From Mustelus asterias (Eukaryota): a DNA stretch of 64,000 nt. Under the pieces are notes generated by a model. That model was not told the origin of the DNA, made no database searches, and saw only the letters and a program-made list of their open reading frames with translations. The translations under genes were made by a program, and so were the position numbers. Each line of letters begins with the position of its first letter. The first letter of the stretch is position 1. The stretch lies in assembly GCF_964213995.1 (NCBI RefSeq), contig NC_135802.1, forward strand, positions 70,990,001 to 71,054,000. Direction: 5' to 3'. Positions 14,438 through 55,834 of this stretch are shown in pieces.

Positions 14438-16946
14438 ATAAGAACATAAGAACATAAGAAATAGGAGCAGGAGTAGGCCATCTAGCCCCTCGAGCCTGCC
14501 CCGCCATTCAATAAGATCATGGCTGATCTGACGTGGATCAGTACCACTTACCCGCCTGATCCCCATAACCCTTAATTCCCTTACCGATCAGGAATCCATC
14601 CATCCGCGCTTTAAACATATTCAGCGAGGTAGCCTCCACCACCTCAGTGGGCAGAGAATTCCAGAGATTCACCACCCTCTGGGAGAAGAAGTTCCTCCTC
14701 AACTCTGTCTTAAACCGACCCCCCTTTATTTTGAGGCTGTGTCCTCTAGTTTTAACTTCCTTACTAAGTGGAAAGAATCTCTCCGCCTCCACCCTATCCA
14801 GCCCCCGCATTATCTTATAAGTCTCCATAAGATCCCCCCTCATCCTTCTAAACTCCAACGAGTACAAACCCAATCTCCTCAGCCTCTCCTCATAATCCAA
14901 ACCCCTCATCTCCGGTATCAACCTGGTGAACCTTCTCTGCACTCCCTCCAATGCCAATATATCCTTCCTCATATAAGGGGACCAATACTGCACACAGTAT
15001 TCCAGCTGCGGCCTCACCAATGCCCTGTACAGGTGCATCAAGACATCCCTGCTTTTATATTCTATCCCCTTCGCAATATAGGCCAACATCCCATTTGCCT
15101 TCTTGATCACCTGTTGTACCTGCAGACTGGGCTTTTGCGTCTCATGCACAAGGACCCCCAGGTCCCTTTGCACGGTAGCATGTTTTAATTTGTTTCCATT
15201 GAGATAGTAATCCCATTTGTTATTATTTCCTCCAAAGTGTATAACCTCGCATTTCTCAACGTTATACTCCATTTGCCATATCCTCGCCCACTCACTCAGC
15301 CTGTCCAAATCTCTCTGCAGATCTTCTCCGTCCTCCACACGATTCACTTTTCCACTTATCTTTGTGTCGTCTGCAAACTTCGTTACCCTACACTCCGTCC
15401 CCTCCTCCAGATCATCTATATAAATGGTAAATAGTTGCGGCCCGAGTACCGATCCCTGCGGCACGCCACTAGTTACCTTCCTCCAACCGGAAAAACACCC
15501 ATTTATTCCGACTCTTTGCTTCCTGTCGGATAGCCAGTCCCCAATCCACTTTAACACACTACCCCCAACTCCGTGTGCCCTAATCTTCTTCAGTAGCCTT
15601 TTATGGGGCACCTTATCAAACGCCTTTTGGAAATCCAAAAACACCGCATCCACCGGTTCTCCTCCATCAACCGCCCTAGTCACATCTTCATAAAAATCCA
15701 ACATGTTCGTCAAGCACGACTTTCCCCTCATGAATCCATGCTGCGTCTGATTGATCGAACCATTTCTATCCAGATGCCCTGCTATCTCCTCTTTAATAAT
15801 GGATTCCAGCATTTTCCCTACTACAGATGTTAAGCTGACCGGCCTATAGTTACCCGCCTTTTGTCTCCTTCCTTTTTTAAACAGCGGCGTAACATTAGCC
15901 GTTTTCCAATCAACCGGCACTACCCCAGAATGCAACGAGTTTTGATAAATAATCACTAACGCATCCACTATTACCTCTGACATTTCTTTCAATACCCTGG
16001 GATGCATTCCATCCGGACCCGGGGACTTATCCACCTTCAGTCCCATTAGTCTACCCAGCACTGCCTCTCTGGTAACATTAATTGTATTAAGTATTTCTCC
16101 TGCTGCCAACCCTCTATCGTTAATATTTGGCAAACTATTTGTGTCCTCCACCGTGAAGACCGACACAAAAAACTTATTTAAAGACTCAGCCATATCCTCA
16201 TTTCCCACTATTAACTCCCCCCTCTCGTCCTCCAAGGGTCCAACATTCACTCTAGCCACTCTATTCCTTTTTATATATTTATAAAAACTTTTACTATCAT
16301 TTTTTATATTAATTGCTAGCCTAGCTTCATAGTCTATCCTTCCTTTCTTTATCACTTTCTTAGTCTCTCTTTGTTGTTTCTTAAATTTTTCCCAATCACT
16401 TGTTTCTCCACTATTTTTGGCCACTCTGTACGCAGCTGTTTTTATTTTAATACTCTCCTTTATTTCCTTCGTTATCCACGGCTGGTTCTCCCTTTTCTTA
16501 CAATCCTTGTTTTTTGCTGGAATATATTTTTGCTGAGAACTGAAAAGGATCTCCTTAAAAATCCTCCACTGTTCCTCAGCTATCCTACCTGCCAGCCTGC
16601 TCTCCCAGTCTACCTTAGCCAATTCATCCCTCATCCTATCATATTTCCCTCTGTTCAAACAGAGGACACTGGTTTGGGACCAAACTTTCTCCTCTTCCAT
16701 CTGAATCAGAAATTCGACCATATTGTGGTCACTAGACCCAAGAGGGTCCTTCACAATAAGATCCTTAATTCTACCTACCTCGTTACACAATACCAGATCC
16801 AAAATAGCTCGTTCCCTCGTCGGTTCCGTAACATGCTGTTCAAGGAAACTATCCCGACAGCATTCTAAGAACTCTTCCTCCATTCCACCCTTACCGACTT
16901 GAGTCTGCCAGTCAATGTGCATGTTGAAGTCCCCCATGATTATTGC
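14438..16946 (-). mobile_element. Young CR1 LINE, 5'-truncated within the endonuclease
   Basis: (TTCTTATG)n 3' tail; uninterrupted ORF2; CpG retained. Confidence 0.97.
14538..16945 (-). CDS. CR1 ORF2 fragment (C-terminal APE endonuclease plus complete RT), open about 800 codons
   Basis: GDFN, LDLVL, SDHN, NYRPVSLTS, QHGF, LDFQKAFD, GVPQGSVLGP, KFADDTK; the N-terminal residues of the ORF-track call are flanking DNA. Confidence 0.92.
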
Positions 16947-17560
16947 AAATAATAACTGTCTGTGTGGGTTACGACTACCACTAGTCAACCGCTGTCCATC
17001 AGAGGTGACAATAGTTTGTCAGTGCAAGAGCTGTCCAATGTTTGGCATGGTATCACCATGACAACGACCTGTCTCTTTCTCCAGGGAGTCTCAGTCTATA
17101 GCATTGCTGTCATCCCCTATCTGGGTCATCACACTTCCTGCTACATGTCACATGCAAATAATCCTTAGCTTTCCTTTTCTATTTTCCTTTACTTCTTTCT
17201 GTATCTGAGGGCAGCTTCTGCAAAAAAAAACTTGCAATGTGGCTCAGGAATCATTTAAGCTTCGCTATTTACTGATTAGTTCTGCTCTGTCTTTTCTGGT
17301 ACATTTTGATGCATTCTCTTACTTTAACTTGCAACATATCACATCCAATTTCTTTCTTTTTGGTGACTCCTCTAGCCTGTTTCTTTTTCTTTTCTGTCAA
17401 ATATCCTTGTTTTTCCCTCTATCTGTTCTTCGTACACCAAAATATATCAGTTGCTACCTGGCTGACTTGATTTTAGTTTTCCATCTGCTACTCCTTGTTT
17501 CAGGGGATGTGGGCATCAGAGGCTGGGCGAGGATTTGTTGCCCATCCCAAATTGCCCTTC

Positions 17561-18113
17561 AACTCTGGTGCGGCCGCACTTGGAGTACTGTGTGCAGTTC
17601 TGGTCCCCACATTACAGGAAGGATGTGGAGGCTTTGGAGAGGGTGCAGAGGAGGTTTACCAGGATGTTGCCTGGTATGGAGGGGAGATCCTATGAGGAGA
17701 GGCTGAGGGATTTGGGATTGTTTTCGCTGGAAAGGCGGCGGCTAAGAGGGGATCTTATTGAAACATATAAGATGATTAGAGGTTTAGATAGGGTGGATAG
17801 TGATAGCCTTTTTCCTCTGATGGAGAAATCCAGCACGAGGGGGCATGGCTTTAAATTGAGGGGGGGTAGTTATAGAACCGATGTCAGGGGTAGGTTCTTT
17901 ACCCAGAGGGTGGTGAGGGATTGGAATGCCCTGCCAGCATCAGTAGTAAATGTGCCTAGTTTGGGGGCGTTTAAGAGATCCGTAGATAGGTTCATGGACG
18001 AAAAGAAATTGGTTTAGGTTGGAGGGTCACAGTTTTTTTTTTAACTGGTCGGTGCAACATCGTGGGCCGAAGGGCCTGTTCTGCGCTGTAATGTTCTATG
18101 TTCTATGTTCTAT
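17561..18113 (+). mobile_element. Young CR1 3' fragment inserted into an older interspersed repeat
   Basis: LVRPHLEYCVQFWSP...; (ATGTTCT)n tail; the host repeat continues on both sides (17505-17560, 18114-18189, 22674-22710). Confidence 0.92.
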
Positions 18114-18189
18114 AAGTGGCTTGCTCGGCCATTTCAGAAGACAATTAAAAGTCAAGTACATTGCTGTAGGCCATATCAGGTAAGGATGA

Positions 18190-18434
18190 TGATGCGCTAT
18201 CAACAAGGCGAAAGACTACCTCTGTGCCAATACAAGTGTAGGCTTTTATTCACAACAGAATCAGGAGCAGATCCCAACAAATAACCGACCTGGACTGAAC
18301 AAGGGGGAGGAGACAGCCACCTTTATACTAGGTGCCGAGGGGAGAAACCAAACCGGAGGGGGATGAGTCCAGGTATGACAAACACACACAACGGTGGTCC
18401 AAATAGGACAAAGGCACAACTGAGGTCCACCACA
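18190..18434 (-). repeat. 3' LTR
   Basis: Direct repeat of 22429-22673. Confidence 0.97.
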
Positions 18435-18449
18435 TTCACCCCTTCCTTT
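18435..18449 (-). other. Polypurine tract
   Basis: Minus strand AAAGGAAGGGGTGAA immediately before the 3' LTR. Confidence 0.85.
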
Positions 18450-18484
18450 AAAAAAAACAACACGGGGGTGAAGCGGAAACAATA

Positions 18485-20251
18485 TTACAAGTCCAGACGA
18501 ACCGGTGGTTTGATCCGCCGTCGCGGTCGTCGTAGTGCAGGTCGCAGAGTCGTCCGATCAGGGAGCGATGTCGGCCCAGGCTCCGTACAGTGAGCGTCAA
18601 GAGAAGGCGCCAGGTGGTGTGAAGCGGACCGATCCGTCGTCCCGTCCAGTCGTCGGGTACTGCGTGGCGACGGCTCCGGCGACTCAAGCGAGCTGTACAC
18701 AGGGGCGAGAGGAGTGAGCAGTGGCCCTGGTGGCGTATGGGGAACAGTGGGAACCGGAGCTGGGGGGTGGGGGGCTGCAACAGGCTCTGGGCGCACTACA
18801 TTGGAGACAGGGACTGAGGGAGGAAGAGGCGCAGCAATCTCCGAGTGGACAACACCAGGGACCGTGGGGCAGAAGTCACGGACAGAAACCGTGTCCTCCC
18901 GCCCATCAGGGTACGCTACATAAGCGTATTGAGGATTAACGTGGATCAATTGGACCTCCTCGACCAAGGGATCTGCCTTATGGGTCCGGACATGCTTCCG
19001 AAGCAGGACGGGCCCCGGGGACATCAGCCAATCCGGGAGCGAAGTACCCGAGGAGGACTTCCTGGGAAACGAAAACATCCACTCGTGAGGGGTCGTATTG
19101 GTCGCTGTGCACAAGAGTGACCTAATTGAATGTAATGCGTCCGGAAGGACGTCTTGCCAATGGCTGACTGGAAGGCCCCTAGACCGTAGCGCTAATAGAA
19201 TGGCCTTCCAGACGGTTGCGTTCTCCCGCTCTACTTGACCATTGCCCCTGGGGTTATAGCTAGTGGTGCGGCTGGAGGCAACGCCTTTGGCGAGCAGGTA
19301 CTGCCTCAGCTCGTCACTCATGAAAGAGGACCCACGATCGCTATGAACATAGGCTGGGAAGCCGAATAGGGTGAAGAGCGTGGTCAGGGTCCGAATCACT
19401 GTAGCCGTGGTCATGTCCGAGCAGGGGAAGGCAAAAGGGAAACGTGAGTATTCGTCAATGATATTCAGGAAATAAACATTGCGGTTAGAGGAGGGGAGGG
19501 AGCCTTTAAAATCAATGCTAAGGCGCTCAAACGCGCGAGTGGCCTTTACAAGGTGCGCCCTACCTGGCCGGTAGAACTGCGGTTTGAACTCAGTGCAGAC
19601 CCTGCATTGCCTGGTAATCGTCCGAACTTCCTCGAGGGAGTAGGGCAGGTTATGGGACTTGACAAAGTGGAAAAATCTGGTGACAACCGGATGACAGAGG
19701 TCGTTATGGAGGGACTGTAGCTGGTCTAGTTGGGCGCTGGCACATGATCCACGGGACAGGGCATCTGGGGGCTCATTGAGCTTCCCGGGCCGGTACATGA
19801 TGTCATATCTGTAGGTGGAGAGCTCAATCCTCCACCGCAAGATCTTGTCATTCTTAATCTTGCCCTTTTGCCTGGTGTTAAACAGGAAGGCAACTGACCG
19901 CTGGTCCGTAATTAAGGTGAATCGTTGGCCCGCAAGATAATGGCGCCAGTGCTGGACGGCTTCCACGATGGCCTGGGCCTCCTTCTCGACCGAGGAGTGT
20001 CGAATCTCAGGGCCTTGTAAGGTCCGGGAAAAGAAGGCCACCGGACGGCCCCTTTGGTTAAGGGTGGCGGCTAGGGCAAAGTCAGATGCATCACTTTCCA
20101 CTTGGAATGGGATGGATTCGTCCACAGCATGCATCGCGGCCTTCGCGATGTCCGCTTTGATGTCGTTGAAGGCCCGACGGGCCTCCTCTGCCAGGGGAAA
20201 AGAGGTCGATTTTAGAAGCGGACGGGCTTTAATGGGGAACCCACTGGGCAT
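18485..20251 (-). pseudogene. pol: Gypsy pol: RT connection, RNase H and integrase (frameshifted from RT)
   Basis: ESDASDFA, VEKEAQA, TDQRS, PPDALSR; H..H..CRVC; IDFKG / HSDRGSSF / NGQVERE DDE motifs. Confidence 0.92.
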
Positions 20252-20273
20252 AGTAGGAGAAGAAGCCCAGGCA

Positions 20274-21005
20274 TCACCTCAGTGCTTTGAGGGTAGTAGG
20301 GAGGGGAAGCTGCATAAGGGGACGCATACGGGCTGGGTCGGGGCCAAGGACACCATTTTCTATCATGTACCCAAGTATGGCGAGGCGGCGTGTCCGGAAA
20401 ACACACTTCGCCTCATTATATGTGAGGTTCAGGAGAGTGGCCGTACGAAGGAATTTTTGTAGGTTGGCATCATGGTCCTGCAGGTCATGGCCGCAGATGG
20501 TGAGGTTATCCAGATACGGGAAAGTGGCCCGTAGCCCGTGCTGGTCTACCATTTGATCCATGGCCCGCTGGAAGACTGAGACCCCATTGGTGACACCAAA
20601 GGGGACTCGGAGGAACTGGTAGAGGCGGCCGTCCGCCTCAAAGGCAGTATATGGGCGATCCTCCGAGCGGATAGGGAGCTGGTGGTAAGCCGATTTCAAA
20701 TCGATCGTAGAGAAAACCCTATAGTGCGCGATGCGGTTGACTATGTCCGCGATACGGGGAAGAGGGTACGCATCTAGTTGGGTATACCTGTTTATGGTCT
20801 GGCTGTCGTCAATCACCATGCGATGTTTCTCCCCCGATTTAACTACGACCACTTGCGCCCTCCAGGGGCTGGTGCTGGCCTGGATAATCCCTTCCCTGAG
20901 CAAGCATTGTACCTCGGACCGAATGAAGGCCCGGTCATCCGCACTATAGCGCCTACTTTTGGTAGCTATAGGCCTACAATCCGGGGTGAGGTTATCAAAT
21001 AAGGG
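20274..21005 (-). pseudogene. pol: Gypsy reverse transcriptase core
   Basis: SPWRAQVVVV, DAYPLPRI, IDLKSAYHQL, TAF, PFGVTNG, YLDN; frameshift at the G-run near 21003-21011. Confidence 0.92.
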
Positions 21006-21678
21006 GGGGGGTGATCTTGAGGGTCGAGAGACTGCAGGTGGTGCGCGAGGGGCGCTGCAGTGACGGCACCTTGCAGACAGAGAGCGGGGGATAAGGGCCA
21101 TCGTACTGCAGGGTGACGCTCCTATGATGGCTGAGGAAATCTAACCCCAGCAGTACAGCTGCGCAGAGTCGCGGCAGCACGAGGAGGCGAAATCGCTCGT
21201 AGACTGTGCCCTGTACCGTCAGCGTCACCAAACAGCACCCGAGGACCTCCACTGAGTGGGAATTCGAGGCCATGGAGATGGTCTGGCTCCAGGGTCGCAC
21301 GGGAAGGGCATATTGACGCACTGTGCGAGGGTGTATAAAACTTTCTGTGCTCCCACAGTCGAACAGGCAGTTTTCTGCATGATCATTTACCTTGATCTCC
21401 ATTATTGACTTGGAGAGTTGATGAGGCTGCGACTGGTCCAGGCAAATCGATGCCACCGTCGAATCCAAGAAGAATCCATCTTCGTCCCCGTCTGATGACG
21501 TCACGGATAAAGCTTCCTGCTCGGCGCGTCTTGATGCCAGTCTCAAAGATGGCGATTCCCGCGCTTCCGGTGACCGCATCAAAGATGGCGATTCCCGCAC
21601 TTCCGGTGACCGCATTAAAGATGGCGATTCGCGCGCAGCCGCCGCTGCCTTAAAGGTGGCTGCGCCCGCGGAACACAC
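21006..21678 (-). pseudogene. Gypsy gag-PR linker and aspartic protease
   Basis: CLFDCGSTESFI, VLLGLDFL. Confidence 0.85.
21545..21631. repeat. 36-bp tandem repeat, about 2.4 copies
   Basis: AAAGATGGCGATTCCCGCRCTTCCGGTGACCGCATY units start at 21545, 21581 and 21617. Confidence 0.9.
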
Positions 21679-22403
21679 GTGGCGCCACGAGGCTTCGAAA
21701 GCGGCTTTGCCCGGCAGACTTTAGCGAAGTGGCCTAGCTTACTGCATCCGGAGCAAATCGCATCCTTCGCTGGGCAGCGACGCCGAGGGTGCTTGGATAG
21801 GCCACAAAGGTAACATTTGGACCCTGCCGGAACAGCCGTCGCGGTGGAGCCGTCGATAGAATGGGATGCAGGGTAGGACCCAAGGTTGTGAGAGGCCGCC
21901 TCTAGCGTTTCAGCCATCGTGGCTGTTCTTTGGCGATCTAGGCCATCTTGTTCAAGCAGGCGCTGCCGAATGTATGTAGACTCAATGCCCGCAACGTAGG
22001 CGTCGCGGATCAGGTCCTCCGCGTTCTGAGCTGCTGTAACAGCCTTACAGTCACAAGCTCGAGCTAGGACCCGCAGGGCGCGCAGAAATTGGGCGCACAA
22101 TTCTCCTGGCTGCTGCTTGCGGGTAGTTAGGAGATGTCTGGCGTAGACCACGTTAGGGCTCTTTCGGAACTGCCCTTTTTGGAGTTCGATAGCGTCCGCG
22201 TATGTAGCAGCGTCCCGGAAGATACCGTAGACAGCTTCGCTTACCCGGGCGCGGAGCACGTGGAGTTTAGCGTCGTCGGTGTCGATAGCCGTAGCGGTGT
22301 CGACAAATGCTTCGAAGCAGTCCAACCAATGATCAAATTTATCAGAGGCTCCAACCTCTTGAGGGTCTAATGCTAACTTGTCGGGTTTTAGAAACTGCTC
22401 CAT
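21615..22403 (-). pseudogene. gag: Gypsy gag with two CCHC zinc knuckles
   Basis: ATG at 22403 (MEQFLKPDKL); CYLCGLSKHPRRRC and CSGCSKLGHFAKVC; frameshift before the protease. Confidence 0.9.
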
Positions 22404-22412
22404 GCTGGTCAA

Positions 22413-22427
22413 CTGTTGTGAATAAAA
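22413..22427 (-). promoter_or_regulatory. Non-tRNA sequence at the primer-binding position, complementary to the element's own LTR
   Basis: Minus strand TTTTATTCACAACAG starts 1 nt after the LTR end; perfect inverted repeat of 22483-22497. Confidence 0.7.
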
Positions 22428-22428
22428 T

Positions 22429-22673
22429 TGATGCGCTATCAATAAGGCGAAAGACTACCGGTATGCCAATACAAGTGTAGGCTTTTATTCACAACAGAAT
22501 CAGGAGCAGATCCCAACAAATAACCGACCTGGACTGAACAAGGGGGAGGAGACAGCCACCTTTATACTAGGTGCCAAGGGGAGGAACCAAACCGGAGGGG
22601 GATGAGTCCAGGTATGACAAACACACACAATGGTGGTCCAAATAGGACAAAGGCACAACTGAGGTCCACCACA
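22429..22673 (-). repeat. 5' LTR with TATAAA (22561-22566) and AATAAA (22484-22489) on the minus strand
   Basis: Direct repeat of 18190-18434. Confidence 0.97.
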
Positions 22674-22740
22674 GATGACAGATTCCCATCTCTAAAGGTG
22701 AGTTTTTACAAAAAATGATGATGTTTTAAATGTCAAGATT

Positions 22741-23070
22741 CATAGAATCATAGAATCCCTACAGTGCAGAAAGAGGCCATTCAACCCATCGAGTCTGCAC
22801 CGACAACAATCCCACCCAGGCCCTATCCCCATAACCCCACGTATTTACCCTGCAAACCTTCCTGACACTAAGGGGCAATTTAGCATGGCCAATGCACCTA
22901 ACCCGCACATCTTTGGAGTGTGGGAAGAAACCAGAGCACCCAGAGGAAACCCATGCAGACACGGGGAAAACGTGCAAACTCCACACAGACAGTTACCCGA
23001 AGCCAGAGTTGAACCCGGATCCCTGGCGCTGTGAGGCAACAGTGCTAACCACTGTGCCACCGTGCAGCCC
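22741..23070 (-). mobile_element. Full-length HE1-like V-SINE with CR1 tail
   Basis: Reverse complement of the 1797-2100 type; (TTCTATGA)n-like end. Confidence 0.9.
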
Positions 23071-23751: not shown

Positions 23752-24199
23752 CATGATGTGGAGATGCCGGCGTTGGACTGGGGTAAGCACAGTAAGAAGT
23801 CTCACAACACCAGGTTAAAGTCCAACAGGTTTATTTGGTAGCAAATACCAGAAGCTTTCGGAGCAATGCTCCTTCGTCAGATGGAGTGGTCTCTGTTCTC
23901 AAACAGGGCACAGACACAGAAATCAAATTACAGAATACTGATTAGAATGCAAATCTCTACAGCCAGCCAGGTCTTAAATGTACAGACAATGTACAGACAC
24001 ATTGTCTGTACATTTAAGACCTGGCTGGCTGTAGAGATTTGCATTCTAATCAGTATTCTGTAATTTGATTTCTGTGTCTGTGCCCTGTTTGAGAACAGAG
24101 ACCACTCCATCTGACGAAGGAGCATTGCTCCGAAAGCTTATGGTATTTGCTACCAAATAAACCTGTTGGACTTTAACCTGGTGTTGTGAGACTTCTTAC
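23752..24199. mobile_element. PLE family A fold-back insertion: 201-bp inverted arms plus one-sided tail
   Basis: Arms 23792-23992 and 23999-24199 (one mismatch seen); TSD GGTTCAAGAACA at 23742-23753 and 24200-24211. Confidence 0.93.
24107..24143 (+). ncRNA. Minimal type I hammerhead ribozyme motif (mirror copy on the minus strand at about 23848-23884)
   Basis: CCAU-CUGACGA-A-GGAGC-AUU-GCUCC-GAAA-GCU-U-AUGG. Confidence 0.8.
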
Positions 24200-24460
24200 G
24201 GTTCAAGAACAGGCAGAGTTGTAAGTCGAGCAATGTAATATTAAAACTTTCCAAAGGTCAGAAGCTTAGGGCACGTGATGTTGCCCATTAACAAGTCAAC
24301 TACAGGCTAATAAACAGTTTCTATAACGTCTGGTCAAACTCCATTGTTCACCTTTAGGAGATAGATGGTGGCTATTAACACTCCAGCAGATATACCGAGC
24401 TATGATGGCTCTCCCTTTGTTATAGAACCAGGCTGGGGAGACAGATCATCCTTGATTATA

Positions 24461-32759: not shown

Positions 32760-32934
32760 ATATTAGCTGCCGTCAGCGGTGGTGGAGGCGAACTCAATAG
32801 GGTCTTTTAAGAGACTCCTGGATGAGTGCATGGAGCTTAATAGGATGGAGGGTTATAGGTAGGTCGAGAAGGTAGGGATGTGTTCGGCACAACTTGTGGG
32901 CTGAAGGGCCTGTTTGTGCTGTAGTTTTTCTATA
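32760..32934 (+). mobile_element. Short CR1 3' end
   Basis: TTCGGCACAACTTGTGGGCTGAAGGGCCTGTTTGTGCTGTAG end. Confidence 0.75.
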
Positions 32935-32979
32935 TGGTGCTTTATCAAATGCTTTCTGGAATCAAAGTACAGTACATCT

Positions 32980-34087
32980 TGGGGAGGTGGTAAATTGGAT
33001 AAGGCACTGGCTCAATGGAAGAAGCCAGAGAGTGGTTGTGGAGGATTGCTTCTCTGAGTGGAGGCCTGTGACTAGTGGTGTGCCGCAGGGATCGGTGTTG
33101 GGTCCATTGTTGTTTGTCATCTATATCAATGATCTGGATGATAATGTGGTAAATTGGATCAGCAAGTTTGCTGATGATACAAAGATTGGAGGTGTAGTGG
33201 ACAGTGAGGAAAGTTTTCAAAGCTTGCAGAGGGATTTGGACCAACTAGAAAAATGGGCTGAAAAATGGCAAATGGAATTTAACGCAGACAAGTGTGAGAT
33301 ATTGCACTTTGGAAGGACAAACCAAAGAAGAACGTACAGGGTAAATGGTAGGACTCTGAAGAGTGCAGTTGAACAGAGGGATCTGGGAATACAGGTACAG
33401 AATTCCCTAAAAGTGACGTCACAGGTGGATAGGGTCGTAAAGAGTGCCTTTGGTACATTGGCCTTTATAAATCGGAGTATCGAGTATAAAGGTTGGAGTG
33501 TTATGGTAAGGTTATATAAGGCATTGGTGAGGCCGAATTTGGAGTATTGTGTACAGTTTTGGTCACCTAGTTACAGGAAGGATGTAAATAAGATTGAAAG
33601 AGTGCAGAGAAGGTTCACAAGGATGTTGCCGGGACTTGAGAAGCTGAGTTACAGAGAGAGATTGAATAGGTTGGGACTTTATTCCCTGGAGCGTAGAAGA
33701 TTGAGGGGAGATTTGATAGAGGTGTATAAGATTTTGATGGGTATAGATAGAGTGAATGCAAGCAGGCTTTTTCCGCTGAGGCTAGGGGAGAAAAAAACCA
33801 GAGGGCATGGGTTAAGGGTGAAAGGAGAAAAGTTTAAAGGGAATATTAGGTGGGGCTTCTTCACGCAGAGAGTGGTGGGAGTGTGGAATGAGCTGCCGGA
33901 TAAAGTGGCAAATGCGGGGTCACTTTTAACATTTAAGAAAAACTTGGATGGGTTCATGGATGAGAGGGGTGTGGAGGGATATGGTCCAAGTGCAGGTCAG
34001 TGGGACTAGGCATAAAATGGTTCGGCACAGACAAGAAGGGCCAAAAGGCCTGTTTCTGAGCTGTAATTTTCTATGGTTCTATGGTTC
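32980..34087 (+). mobile_element. Young CR1, 5'-truncated, open RT C-terminal ORF to 34009
   Basis: GVPQGSVLGP, KFADDTK; (TTCTATGG)n tail; TSD TACATCT at 32973-32979 and 34088-34094. Confidence 0.95.
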
Positions 34088-36896: not shown

Positions 36897-38245
36897 CATA
36901 GAGTCATAGAGGTTTACAGCATTGAAACAGGCCCTTCGGCCCAACTTGTCCATGCTGCCCTTTTTATTTTAAACCCCTAAGCTAGTCCTAATTGCCTGCG
37001 TTTGGCCCATGTCCCTCTATACCCATCTTACCCATGTAACTGTCTAAACGCTTTTTAAAAGACAAAATTGTACTCGCCTCTACTACTACCTCTGGCAGCT
37101 TGTTCCAGACATTCACCACCTTCTGTGTGAAAAAATTGCCCCTCTTGACACTTTTGTATCTCTCCCCTCTCACCTTAAACCTATGCCCTCTAGTTTTAGA
37201 CTCCCCTACCTTTGGGAAAAGATATTGACTTTCTAGCTGATCTATGCCCCTCGTTATTTTATAGACCTCTATAAGGTCACCCCTCAGCCTCCTACGCTCC
37301 AGAGAAAAAAGTCCCAGTCTATCAAGCCTCTCCTTATAACTCAAACCATCAAGTCCCGGTAGTATCCTAGTAAATCTCTTCTGCACTCTTTCTAGTTTAA
37401 TAATATCCTTTCTATAATAGGGTGACCAGAACTGTACACAGTATTCCAAGTATGGCCTTACCGATGTCTTATCCAACTTCAACAAGACACCCCAACTCCT
37501 GTATTCAATGTTCTGACCAATGAAACCAAGCATGCTGAATGCCTTCTTCACCACTCTGTCCACCTGTGACTCCACTTTCAAGGAGCTATGAACCTGTACC
37601 CCTAGATCTCTTTGTTCTGTAACTCTCCCCAACGCCCTACCATTAACTGAGTAAGTCCTGCCCTGGTTCAATCTACCAAAATGCATCATCTCACAATTAC
37701 CTAAATTAGACTCCATCTGCCATTCGTCAGCCCACTGGCCCAATTGATTAAGATCCCGTTGCAATCCTAGATAACCTTCTTCACTGTCCACTATGCCACC
37801 AATCTTGGTGTCATCTGCAAACTTATTAACCATGCCTCCCATATTCTCATCCAAATTATTAATATAAATGACAAATAACAGTGGATCCAGCACCGATCCC
37901 TGAGGCACACCGCTGGTCACAGGTCTCCAGTTTGAAAAACAACCCTCGACAACCACCCTCTGGCTTCTGTCATCAAGCCAGTTTTTTATCCATTTAGCTA
38001 CCTCACCCTGGATCCCGTGAGATTTAACCTTATGCAACAACCTACCATGCAGTACCTTGTCAAAGGCCTTGCTAAAGTCCATGTAGACAACATCAACTGC
38101 ACTGCCCTCATCTACCTTCTTGGTTACCCCTTCAAAAAACTCAATCAAATTTGTAAGACATGATTTTCCACTCACAAAACCATGCTGACTGTCCCTAATC
38201 AATCCTTGCGTCTCTAAATGCCTGTAGATTCTGTCTCTCAAAATA
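36897..38245 (-). mobile_element. CR1, 5'-truncated, 417-codon open RT fragment (36988-38241)
   Basis: QHGF, MDFSKAFD, GVPQGSVL, KFADDTK. Confidence 0.95.
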
Positions 38246-38382
38246 CCAGCAGTGCAGCTACTATAAAATACCCCAGTGGGCAGATAGTCACCTGCAACAA
38301 CTGCGCAAAATGCTCATTATCAGGAAACTCTACCTTCAGTAAGCACATTTGATCTCTCAAAACCCCTCGGAATAACCTAAAC

Positions 38383-42380: not shown

Positions 42381-43186
42381 GCTGGGCTGAATAATGGCAA
42401 ATGGAGTTTAACCCTGATAAATGTGAGGTCATTCATTTTGGTAGGACTAATTTAAATGTGGATTACAGGGTCAAAGGTAGGGTTCTGAAGACTGTGGAGG
42501 AACAGAGAGATCTTGGGGTCCATATCCACAGATCTCTAAAGGTTGCCACTCAAGTGGATAGAGCTGTGAAGAAGGCCTATAGTGTGTTAGCTTTTATTAA
42601 CAGGGGGTTGGAGTTTAAGAGCCATGGGGTTATGCTGCAACTGTACAGGACCTTGGTGAGACCACATTTGGAATATTGTGTGCAGTTCTGGTCACCTCAC
42701 TATAAGAAGGATGTGGAAGCACTGGAAAGAGTGCAGAGGAGATTTACCAGGATGCTGCCTGGTTTGGAGGGTAGGTCTTATGAGGAAAGGTTGAGGGAGC
42801 TAGGGCTGTTCTCTCTGGAGCGGAGGAGGCTGAGGGGAGACTTAATAGAGGTTTATAAAATGATGAAGGGGATAGATAGAGTGAACGTTCAAAGATTATT
42901 TCCTCGGGTGGATGGAGCTATTACAAGGGGGCATAACTATAGGGTTCATGGTGGGAGATATAGGAAGGATATCAGAGATAGGTTCTTTACGCAGAGAGTG
43001 GTTGGGGTGTGGAATGGACTGCCTGCAGTGATATTGGAGTCAGACACTTCAGGAACATTTAAGCGGTTATTGGATAGGCACATGGAGCACACCAGGATGA
43101 TAGGGAGTGGGATAGCTTGATCTTGGTTTCAGATAAAGCTCGGCACAACATCGTGGGCTGATGTGCTGTACTGTTCTATGTTCTAA
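42381..43186 (+). mobile_element. CR1 3' fragment with open ORF 42401-43120
   Basis: WQMEFNPDKCEVIHFG...LVRPHLEYCVQFWSP. Confidence 0.95.
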
Positions 43187-55328: not shown

Positions 55329-55834
55329 CATGATGTGGAGATGCCGGCGTTGGACTGGGGTAAGCACAGTAAGAAGTTTAACAACACCAGGTTAAAGTCC
55401 AACAGGTTTATTTGGTAGCAAAAGCCACAAGCTTTCGGAGCCTTAAGTCCCTTCTTCAGGTGAGTGGGAATTCTGTTCACAAACAGGGCATATAAAGACA
55501 CAAACTCAATTTACAGAATAATGGTTGGAATGCGAATACTTACAGCTAATCAAGTCTTTAAGATACAAACAATGTGAGTGGAGAGAGCATTAAGACAGGT
55601 TAAAAAGATGTGTATTGTCTCCAGACAGGACAGCCACTGGCTGTCTTAATGCTCTCTCCACTCACATTGTTTGTATCTTAAAGACTTGATTAGCTGTTGT
55701 GTCTTTATATGCCCTGTTTGTGAACAGAATTCCCACTCACCTGAAGAAGGGGCTTGGAGCTCCGAAAGCTTGTGTGGCTTTTGCTCCCAAATAAACCTGT
55801 TGGACTTTAACCTGGTGTTGTTAAACTTCTTATT
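55329..55834. mobile_element. PLE family A (second subfamily) fold-back insertion
   Basis: Tail plus left arm 55329-55636, turn GACAGCCA-C-TGGCTGTC, right arm with two deletions; TSD GTGAAACTGAAG at 55316-55327 and 55835-55846. Confidence 0.92.
55738..55774 (+). ncRNA. Minimal hammerhead ribozyme motif (covariant stem I)
   Basis: CAC-CUGAAGA-A-GGGGC-UUGGA-GCUCC-GAAA-GCU-U-GUG. Confidence 0.8.

Follow-up and report, generated by a model that had tools for sequence, protein, structure and literature searches.

We found that a Ty3/Gypsy LTR retrotransposon in the shark Mustelus asterias carries, in the place of a tRNA-binding site, a short leader that is the exact complement of a segment of its own LTR, and that this leader-LTR pairing is real, clade-wide and covarying. 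Judged from the sequences, the pairing very probably serves some form of self-priming of reverse transcription. As to its form, we regard it as rather probable that a non-chromovirus Gypsy clade primes itself without a tRNA from an internal segment of the 5' R region, a putative primer that would be released at a predicted cut by the presumed RNase H activity.

Anatomy of the element and its leader

The element is a 4,484-nt Ty3/Gypsy LTR retrotransposon on the minus strand of the 64-kb stretch of DNA that we analysed, which we will refer to as the window (Table 1). It has the features of Ty3/Gypsy (Metaviridae) elements, i.e., two LTRs with TG..CA ends (here differing from each other at 7 positions), a target-site duplication (TSD), a polypurine tract (PPT) and the order gag-PR-RT-RH-IN, and the best solved match of its reverse transcriptase (RT) was that of Ty3. 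Its Gag, described in the initial annotation as having two knuckles, indeed contains two CX2CX4HX4C knuckles, a feature of the Mag lineage, to which that annotation likened the element. We obtained no Pfam Chromo match at E 0.1 for the integrase tail of the window copy or of three full-length relatives, and no Rfam match near its gathering score, self-cleaving ribozymes included, within positions 18000-23000. The closest named proteins came from sharks and rays, followed by hagfish, Hydra, Trichuris, lobster, ascidian, coral and damselfly, and no relatives were present in the viral contigs searched. Exact searches of the genome returned 3,320 matches to the LTR motif and 902 to the LTR-leader junction.

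Table 1 Coordinates of element features, numbered as in the window
Feature	Position	Strand	Basis
TSD TCATC, 5 bp, 5' side of the element	22674..22678	-	sequence
5' LTR, 245 nt, TG..CA	22429..22673	-	sequence
TATA box TATAAAG in the 5' LTR (first T at 22566)	22560..22566	-	sequence; spacing kept in other shark families
Inr-like TCAGTC, predicted +1 at 22535, 31 nt past the TATA T	22532..22537	-	inferred
Upstream R arm (CTGCTCC..), predicted partner of the gag start region, shark families only	22501..22509	-	fold prediction
R segment CTGTTGTGAATAAAA containing AATAAA (22489-22484); would supply the 3' end of a candidate self-primer, at a predicted +39 to +53	22483..22497	-	complementarity
RCC motif right after the R segment; predicted cut between 22483 and 22482	22465..22482	-	family comparison
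Small RCC:GGY helix opened by RCC, well supported in non-shark relatives, unsupported in shark families	22465..22482	-	
U5/leader hairpin ATTGAT-5nt-ATCAAT, partly conserved, shark families only	22427..22443	-	fold prediction
Single-nucleotide spacer A, separating CA at the LTR end from the primer-binding position	22428..22428	-	sequence
Candidate site of primer binding, TTTTATTCACAACAG, complementary to the R segment at every base and without TGG	22413..22427	-	sequence
gag (two CCHC knuckles)-PR-RT (YLDN)-RH-IN, without chromodomain, four reading-frame pieces in the window copy	18485..22403	-	
PPT with the 3' end ..GGGGTGAA, adjoining the 3' LTR	18435..18449	-	sequence
3' LTR, 245 nt, TG..CA; second copy of the R segment inside at 18244-18258	18190..18434	-	sequence
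TSD TCATC, 5 bp, 3' side of the element	18185..18189	-	sequence

The initial annotation had claimed that the leader lacks a tRNA primer-binding site (PBS), that it is a 15/15 complement of an LTR segment containing AATAAA, and that the 3' end of this segment would lie 1 nt from the LTR edge in priming orientation. All of this held, including every coordinate: the pairing with the R segment is perfect in both LTRs, TGG is absent from the 25-nt leader ahead of the gag ATG (22403), and the register is as described. The chance expectation of such a match in this LTR, with six offsets allowed, is 3.6e-7. In the whole window, four inverted repeats match perfectly over 15 nt or more across a loop of at most 100 nt, the leader-LTR helix being one of them, and the predicted 5' RNA (22535-22385) folded at z = -3.0, with 2 of 200 shuffles equally good. 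The 30 best-scoring copies (out of 40 scored, from 2,376 candidates; window copy included) all keep both arms, which adds little because they are near-identical. The second structure previously proposed, the hairpin across the U5/leader junction, is present in the window but is not conserved across the clade: it reached 5 bp in only 6 of 12 shark families and in 4 of 21 distant families, the latter being the chance level, and we rejected it as a clade-wide feature.

The RT motif of the window copy (RT at 20274-21140) reads YXDN rather than YXDD, as in most clade members; YXDN was found in all shark RT rows with a readable motif, whereas other branches keep YXDD, and the second Asp of YXDD seems to be dispensable in recently active families. 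Three 36-nt tandem copies lie between gag and protease (21543-21650), and the Gag alignment was too variable for scanning.

Elsewhere in the window, a 204-nt inverted repeat (23789-24202; 99% complementary, arms 6 nt apart) forms a fold-back insertion, possibly a Penelope-type remnant, and a further inverted repeat, with perfectly matching arms of 15 nt or more around a short loop, lies at about 55555-55684. LINE-type reverse-transcriptase frames, presumably CR1/L2-like by their motifs, flank the element at 14538-17018 (minus strand) and 17466-18017 (plus strand), and three further open frames of 241-441 codons occur at 32876-34009, 36988-38313 and 42395-43120.

Covariation within the shark genome

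Other families were found via searches with three foreign Gag proteins, for which 120 stretches were fetched; in 240 loci, the motif located 166 distinct 5' ends. Perfect pairing over at least 13 nt was present in 134 of these 166 motif-found 5' ends (the motif itself fixes the first five pairs), with as many as 22 different 13-nt cores. In support of the self-priming proposed in the initial annotation, the pairing of leader and LTR segment was conserved in related elements, with compensatory changes both within and across families.

Two families were represented by many copies, namely family A (55 copies of 60 fetched) and family B (37 of 60). At positions 8, 9, 11 and 13 of the family A helix, the leader partner of the LTR base had the highest mutual information among 921 columns, and at position 10 it ranked 9th; pairing stopped sharply after position 15, with position 16 paired in 4 of the 55 copies. 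On a parsimony tree built without the helix columns, at least 11 switches from one Watson-Crick (WC) pair to another were counted at five positions, the LTR-side changes totalling 13. Family B, which is older, covaried less: its sole variable position (position 8, where the leader partner ranked 3rd) had 28 WC pairs, 1 G-U pair and 8 mismatches (n = 37). Changes from AATAAA to ATTAAA were likewise compensated in the leader (L033, L046).

In several single copies (L179, L186, L202, L204, L343, L351, L385 and L393) the two LTRs carry different family alleles at a variable helix position, which is probably a product of recombination between copies.

Pairing across the clade, compared with control elements

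Beyond the M. asterias genome, the pairing evidence covers metagenome contigs. Of 80 metagenome loci with an RT 49-67% identical, 37 were scorable; in 38 the start of gag could not be recognised, and in 5 the DNA upstream was too short. LTR ends were confirmed from LTR pairs where present. Pairing over 11-19 nt was found in 35 of the 37 scorable loci (several of which come from one assembly); 32 had the exact CA-(A or T)-TTT register and 34 beat all 30 shuffles. Five further pairings were found among the unscored loci (L092, L108, L131, L166 and L168). When leaders were compared with foreign LTRs, the mean match was 4.7 nt (930 pairs, in which two 15-nt matches are one family entered twice).

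The constant anatomy consists of a variable stretch ending in TAAA(A)/RCC (slashes mark junctions), 36-69 nt, and then CA-A/TTT(T)A followed by the complement of the variable stretch. At positions 5-11 in 33 family representatives, hand-picked after inspection, we counted 230 WC pairs, 1 mismatch and no G-U pair; the neighbouring helix that opens at RCC had 23 G-U pairs in 125. Outside sharks, 16 of 21 families had at least 4 bp in this RCC helix, against a mean of 5.1 families in shuffles, of which none of 500 reached 16. In shark families it attained this length in 3 of 12, at the chance level, and the RCC:GGY hairpin was therefore rejected as a shark feature.

One unscored locus, a distant relative, departs from this anatomy: in L168 (positions 176-190) a different segment, ending GACAAAT, pairs with the leader after CA-T, with neither TAAA/RCC nor a poly(A) hexamer, and this locus may mark the edge of the clade. 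A quick-search RT tree, which has two other shark Gypsy lineages as outgroups and contains no named reference sequence, grouped 45 clade rows (SH-aLRT 97) against 6 rows of other shark Gypsy.

Of 20 other Gypsy-type loci taken from the same genome as controls, 19 had both a match in RT (29-37%) and a pair of repeats. Their self-complement was at most 8 nt in 19 of 19 repeat pairs and TGG was present at the LTR edge in 16 of 19, in a set that comprises only 2-3 families and some mis-bounded repeat pairs. A chromovirus control candidate from this genome (L333) gave no RT match. A young Gypsy family with open frames of up to about 2,000 codons (L315-L329) has its TGG site 4 T's from the LTR end.

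A proposed model of internal self-priming

The model starts from the observed anatomy, i.e., a 13-19 bp WC match in a fixed register, with a 3' end one base from the LTR CA and no tRNA site. The RNA would start near 22535, about 38 nt upstream of the segment, as suggested by the TATA box and Inr-like word and by an outer helix to the gag AUG. By analogy with Tf1, the RNase H of the element's RT would cut at TAAA(A)/RCC, the point at which the helix stops or borders on the small RCC:GGY hairpin. The product would be a capped 5' piece of roughly 53 nt, with its last 15 nt annealed and its 3'-OH A facing U5. The resulting strong-stop DNA would comprise U5 and only a short part of R (10-30 nt, from the cut to the poly(A) site), and would use this limited homology to jump. 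Plus-strand synthesis would then copy the primer back into the leader, which may be why covariation is fast and free of wobble pairs. Where the helix contains AATAAA or ATTAAA, folding would additionally conceal the poly(A) signal of the 5' LTR but leave that of the 3' LTR, which lacks a leader, exposed; such hiding is likely a second benefit and not the core job.

The 3' LTR is usually preceded by AA. If the terminal A of the primer were retained, the opposite end would therefore carry two extra bases to match, an overhang of the kind found in HIV-1.

A broader proposal, which we put forward tentatively and in its full form lean slightly against, is that a whole Gypsy clade of metazoans, present in sharks, rays and many invertebrates, invented self-priming on its own by making a primer of its poly(A)-signal region. 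A single helix would silence 5' polyadenylation and set the TAAA/RCC cut by the element's own RT, and would be recopied in each cycle, meaning that leader and R segment would evolve as one templated unit, with a 50-nt capped leader, and not just the first few bases, as the primer.

Which copy of the segment primes

Self-priming could instead proceed from another copy of the segment, i.e., the 3' R of the same or of a co-packaged RNA, or a short transcript that ended at the 5' poly(A) site and was trimmed to the helix edge. We consider this unlikely, even though the segment is present in both LTRs, lies at the poly(A) signal, the place where transcripts receive their 3' ends, and would explain the register and the wobble-free covariation equally well from either copy. 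The 5' copy, however, is only 36-69 nt away and folds in cis, and a cut in the 3' R would destroy the homology for the first jump. Copies with unequal LTRs point both ways: the leader matches the 3' and not the 5' LTR in a few of them (L186, L202, L343), but as many or more match the 5' LTR (L179, L204, L351, L393), a mixture that is expected from later recombination between copies.

Position of the transcription start

Internal priming from the 5' R segment further depends on where the RNA begins. The segment had been placed roughly 40-55 nt past a TATA-predicted start, and in shark families TATA and Inr agree with this (about +39 to +55); the 6 non-shark LTRs examined had no clear TATA. Specifically, the distance from TATA to the segment end is 84-85 nt in 50 of the 55 copies of family A, 85-89 nt in 31 of the 37 copies of family B and 83-96 nt in other shark families, with an Inr-like word 31-34 nt after TATA in families A and B. 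Sequence upstream of the segment was predicted to pair with the gag start, above shuffles, in 8 of 12 shark families and in 1 of 20 others, and we rejected this outer AUG helix as a clade-wide feature on the latter count. Among the 166 distinct 5' ends, the outer helix was identical in 127, wobble-compatible in 27 and doubly changed in 1, one of its arms being coding; given the 127 identical cases, its support is mostly conservation. Since non-shark LTRs have neither a clear TATA nor the outer helix, we argue for an internal position only in sharks.

These observations bear on the possibility that the clade uses the ordinary Tf1 mode in a new lineage, with the RNA starting at the paired segment and its first 13-19 nt as the primer. 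This is the only experimentally proven mode according to the available text of the Tf1 reports (PMC4600332, PMC10085805), and the non-shark members have no visible TATA that would argue otherwise. We nevertheless hold it to be quite unlikely: shark families keep TATA and Inr 84-96 nt ahead of the segment end across diverged families, they have no conserved TATA about 30 nt upstream of the segment start, and the sequence upstream of the segment is the predicted partner of the gag start.

Contigs of related runs span U3 and R and so cannot show RNA ends. The first bases of the metagenome contigs L131 and L092 fall on the segment start or no more than 2 nt from it. We rejected this as a start-site hint because the stretch from there to the end of the LTR, about 55 and 77 nt, equals common assembler word sizes. 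A search for poly(A)-tailed retrocopies gave 0 matches for two patterns (compared with 3,320 for the plain motif) and was uninformative on the poly(A) site.

Priming and masking of the poly(A) signal

The initial annotation had suggested that the same helix masks the 5' poly(A) signal as a second job. The helix holds AATAAA or ATTAAA in 11 of 11 shark representatives and in 13 of 20 distant families; the remaining 7 distant families have GTTAAA (4), TTTAAA (2) or GATAAA (1) in its place, and 3 of these 7 have a free canonical hexamer between the arms. This weakens masking as a co-equal job, and it is not the core job, given that 7 of 20 distant families have no canonical hexamer in the helix. 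By contrast, the invariant TAAA/RCC and the 1-nt distance to the LTR end are needed by a primer and not by a mask, which favours priming over masking. Poly(A) masking is thus probably a side benefit in some families.

For the same reasons we find it very unlikely that the helix is a regulatory RNA structure that conceals the gag AUG and the poly(A) signal of the 5' LTR, with priming by something that leaves no mark. Such a structure would fit the hexamer counts, the compensated change from AATAAA to ATTAAA (L033) and the outer helix that covers the AUG in sharks. It does not fit the distant families whose canonical hexamer is missing from the helix or free nearby, and a masking stem needs neither a fixed 1-nt distance to the LTR nor the exclusion of G-U pairs. 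The helix also occupies the sole place for primer binding, as the leaders are 16-50 nt long.

That the leader binds a host tRNA, a tRNA fragment or another small RNA, its LTR match being incidental, is close to refuted: although half-molecule (non-3'-end) tRNA priming exists in some Copia lineages according to the available part of one report (PMC6317226), the 22 different leader cores in one genome each match their own LTR, and the longest tRNA complement of 11 shark leaders was at most 5 nt (26 distinct tRNA genes, 7 anticodon types only), in line with the absence of a tRNA site first noted. Because this tRNA set is incomplete, the stronger argument is that each leader follows its own LTR.

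Comparison with known systems

In retroviruses such as HIV-1, only the 5' copy of AATAAA is enclosed in a helix, and R/U5 sequence pairs with the start of gag (U5:AUG). These viruses are tRNA-primed, and their poly(A) hairpin is separate from the primer site. The shark element resembles HIV-1 in that its 1-nt spacer, together with a terminal A, would leave 2 nt protruding past CA.

As far as the available accounts go, experimental proof of self-priming is limited to the Tf1-type chromoviruses of fission yeast, with predictions for a few plant lineages. If our reading is true, a large non-chromovirus animal clade would represent a further origin of tRNA-free initiation, would bear on whether hairpin or tRNA priming came first (a question raised in the accessible text of PMC3601003), and would be predicted to be free from control by 3' tRNA fragments. 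It would also explain why PBS-based annotation of these elements finds no site. The fixed TAAA/RCC junction defines an exact testable bond, and the genome offers about 900 exact leader copies of one family. Our literature search, which covered older work incompletely, returned no description of a poly(A)-signal primer in an animal Gypsy clade outside the chromoviruses; an earlier notice in the older literature is possible.

Self-priming has been described for Tf1/sushi, Tcn1 and Copia TAR elements, with the primer at the RNA 5' end in the available portions of these reports (PMC3601003, PMC5006619, PMC6317226, PMC6238403, PMC4600332, PMC5341516, PMC3670739, PMC2864245, PMC10085805). In the plant lineages Tcn1 (Gypsy) and TAR/Houba/Osr-1 (Copia), self-primers were likewise predicted from LTR-leader complementarity (PMC6317226), which on that partial account shows that the trait arose more than once. 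Tcn1 is a chromovirus, however, and TAR a Copia element, and the accessible text makes no link to a poly(A) signal (PMC6317226). In the dictyostelid Skipper the TGG site is also replaced, by a pyrimidine-rich leader, but this element has a chromodomain and, in the text available, no complementary LTR segment (PMC5006619).

The closest precedent is Tf1-type self-priming, which has been demonstrated (PMC4600332, PMC5341516, PMC10085805, each available in part). Tf1 and Tf2 of S. pombe, Tj1, Tosmo1-3, Tcry1 and the Tf1/sushi chromoviruses are likewise described there as having no tRNA site (PMC10085805, PMC4600332, PMC5341516). As these partial accounts have it, the shark element shares with Tf1/sushi a position after the 5' LTR that complements its own LTR segment in priming orientation, helices that flank a central duplex, and the Ty3/Gypsy domain order. 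It differs in having no chromodomain and two Gag knuckles, and its clade has a duplex of 13-19 bp with a fixed TAAA(A)/RCC end, usually with a poly(A) hexamer. Unlike in Tf1, the shark duplex is predicted at +39 to +55 and not at the RNA 5' end. The Tf1 'pretzel', in which, as far as described, both side duplexes involve LTR sequence downstream of the primer, was not found in the shark element, where the sequence 3' of the primer site is predicted to pair instead with RNA upstream of the segment in a nested arrangement. The element is thus not a member of the Tf1/sushi group, and most likely uses a variant of the self-priming known from Tf1, in a lineage that does not belong to the chromoviruses.
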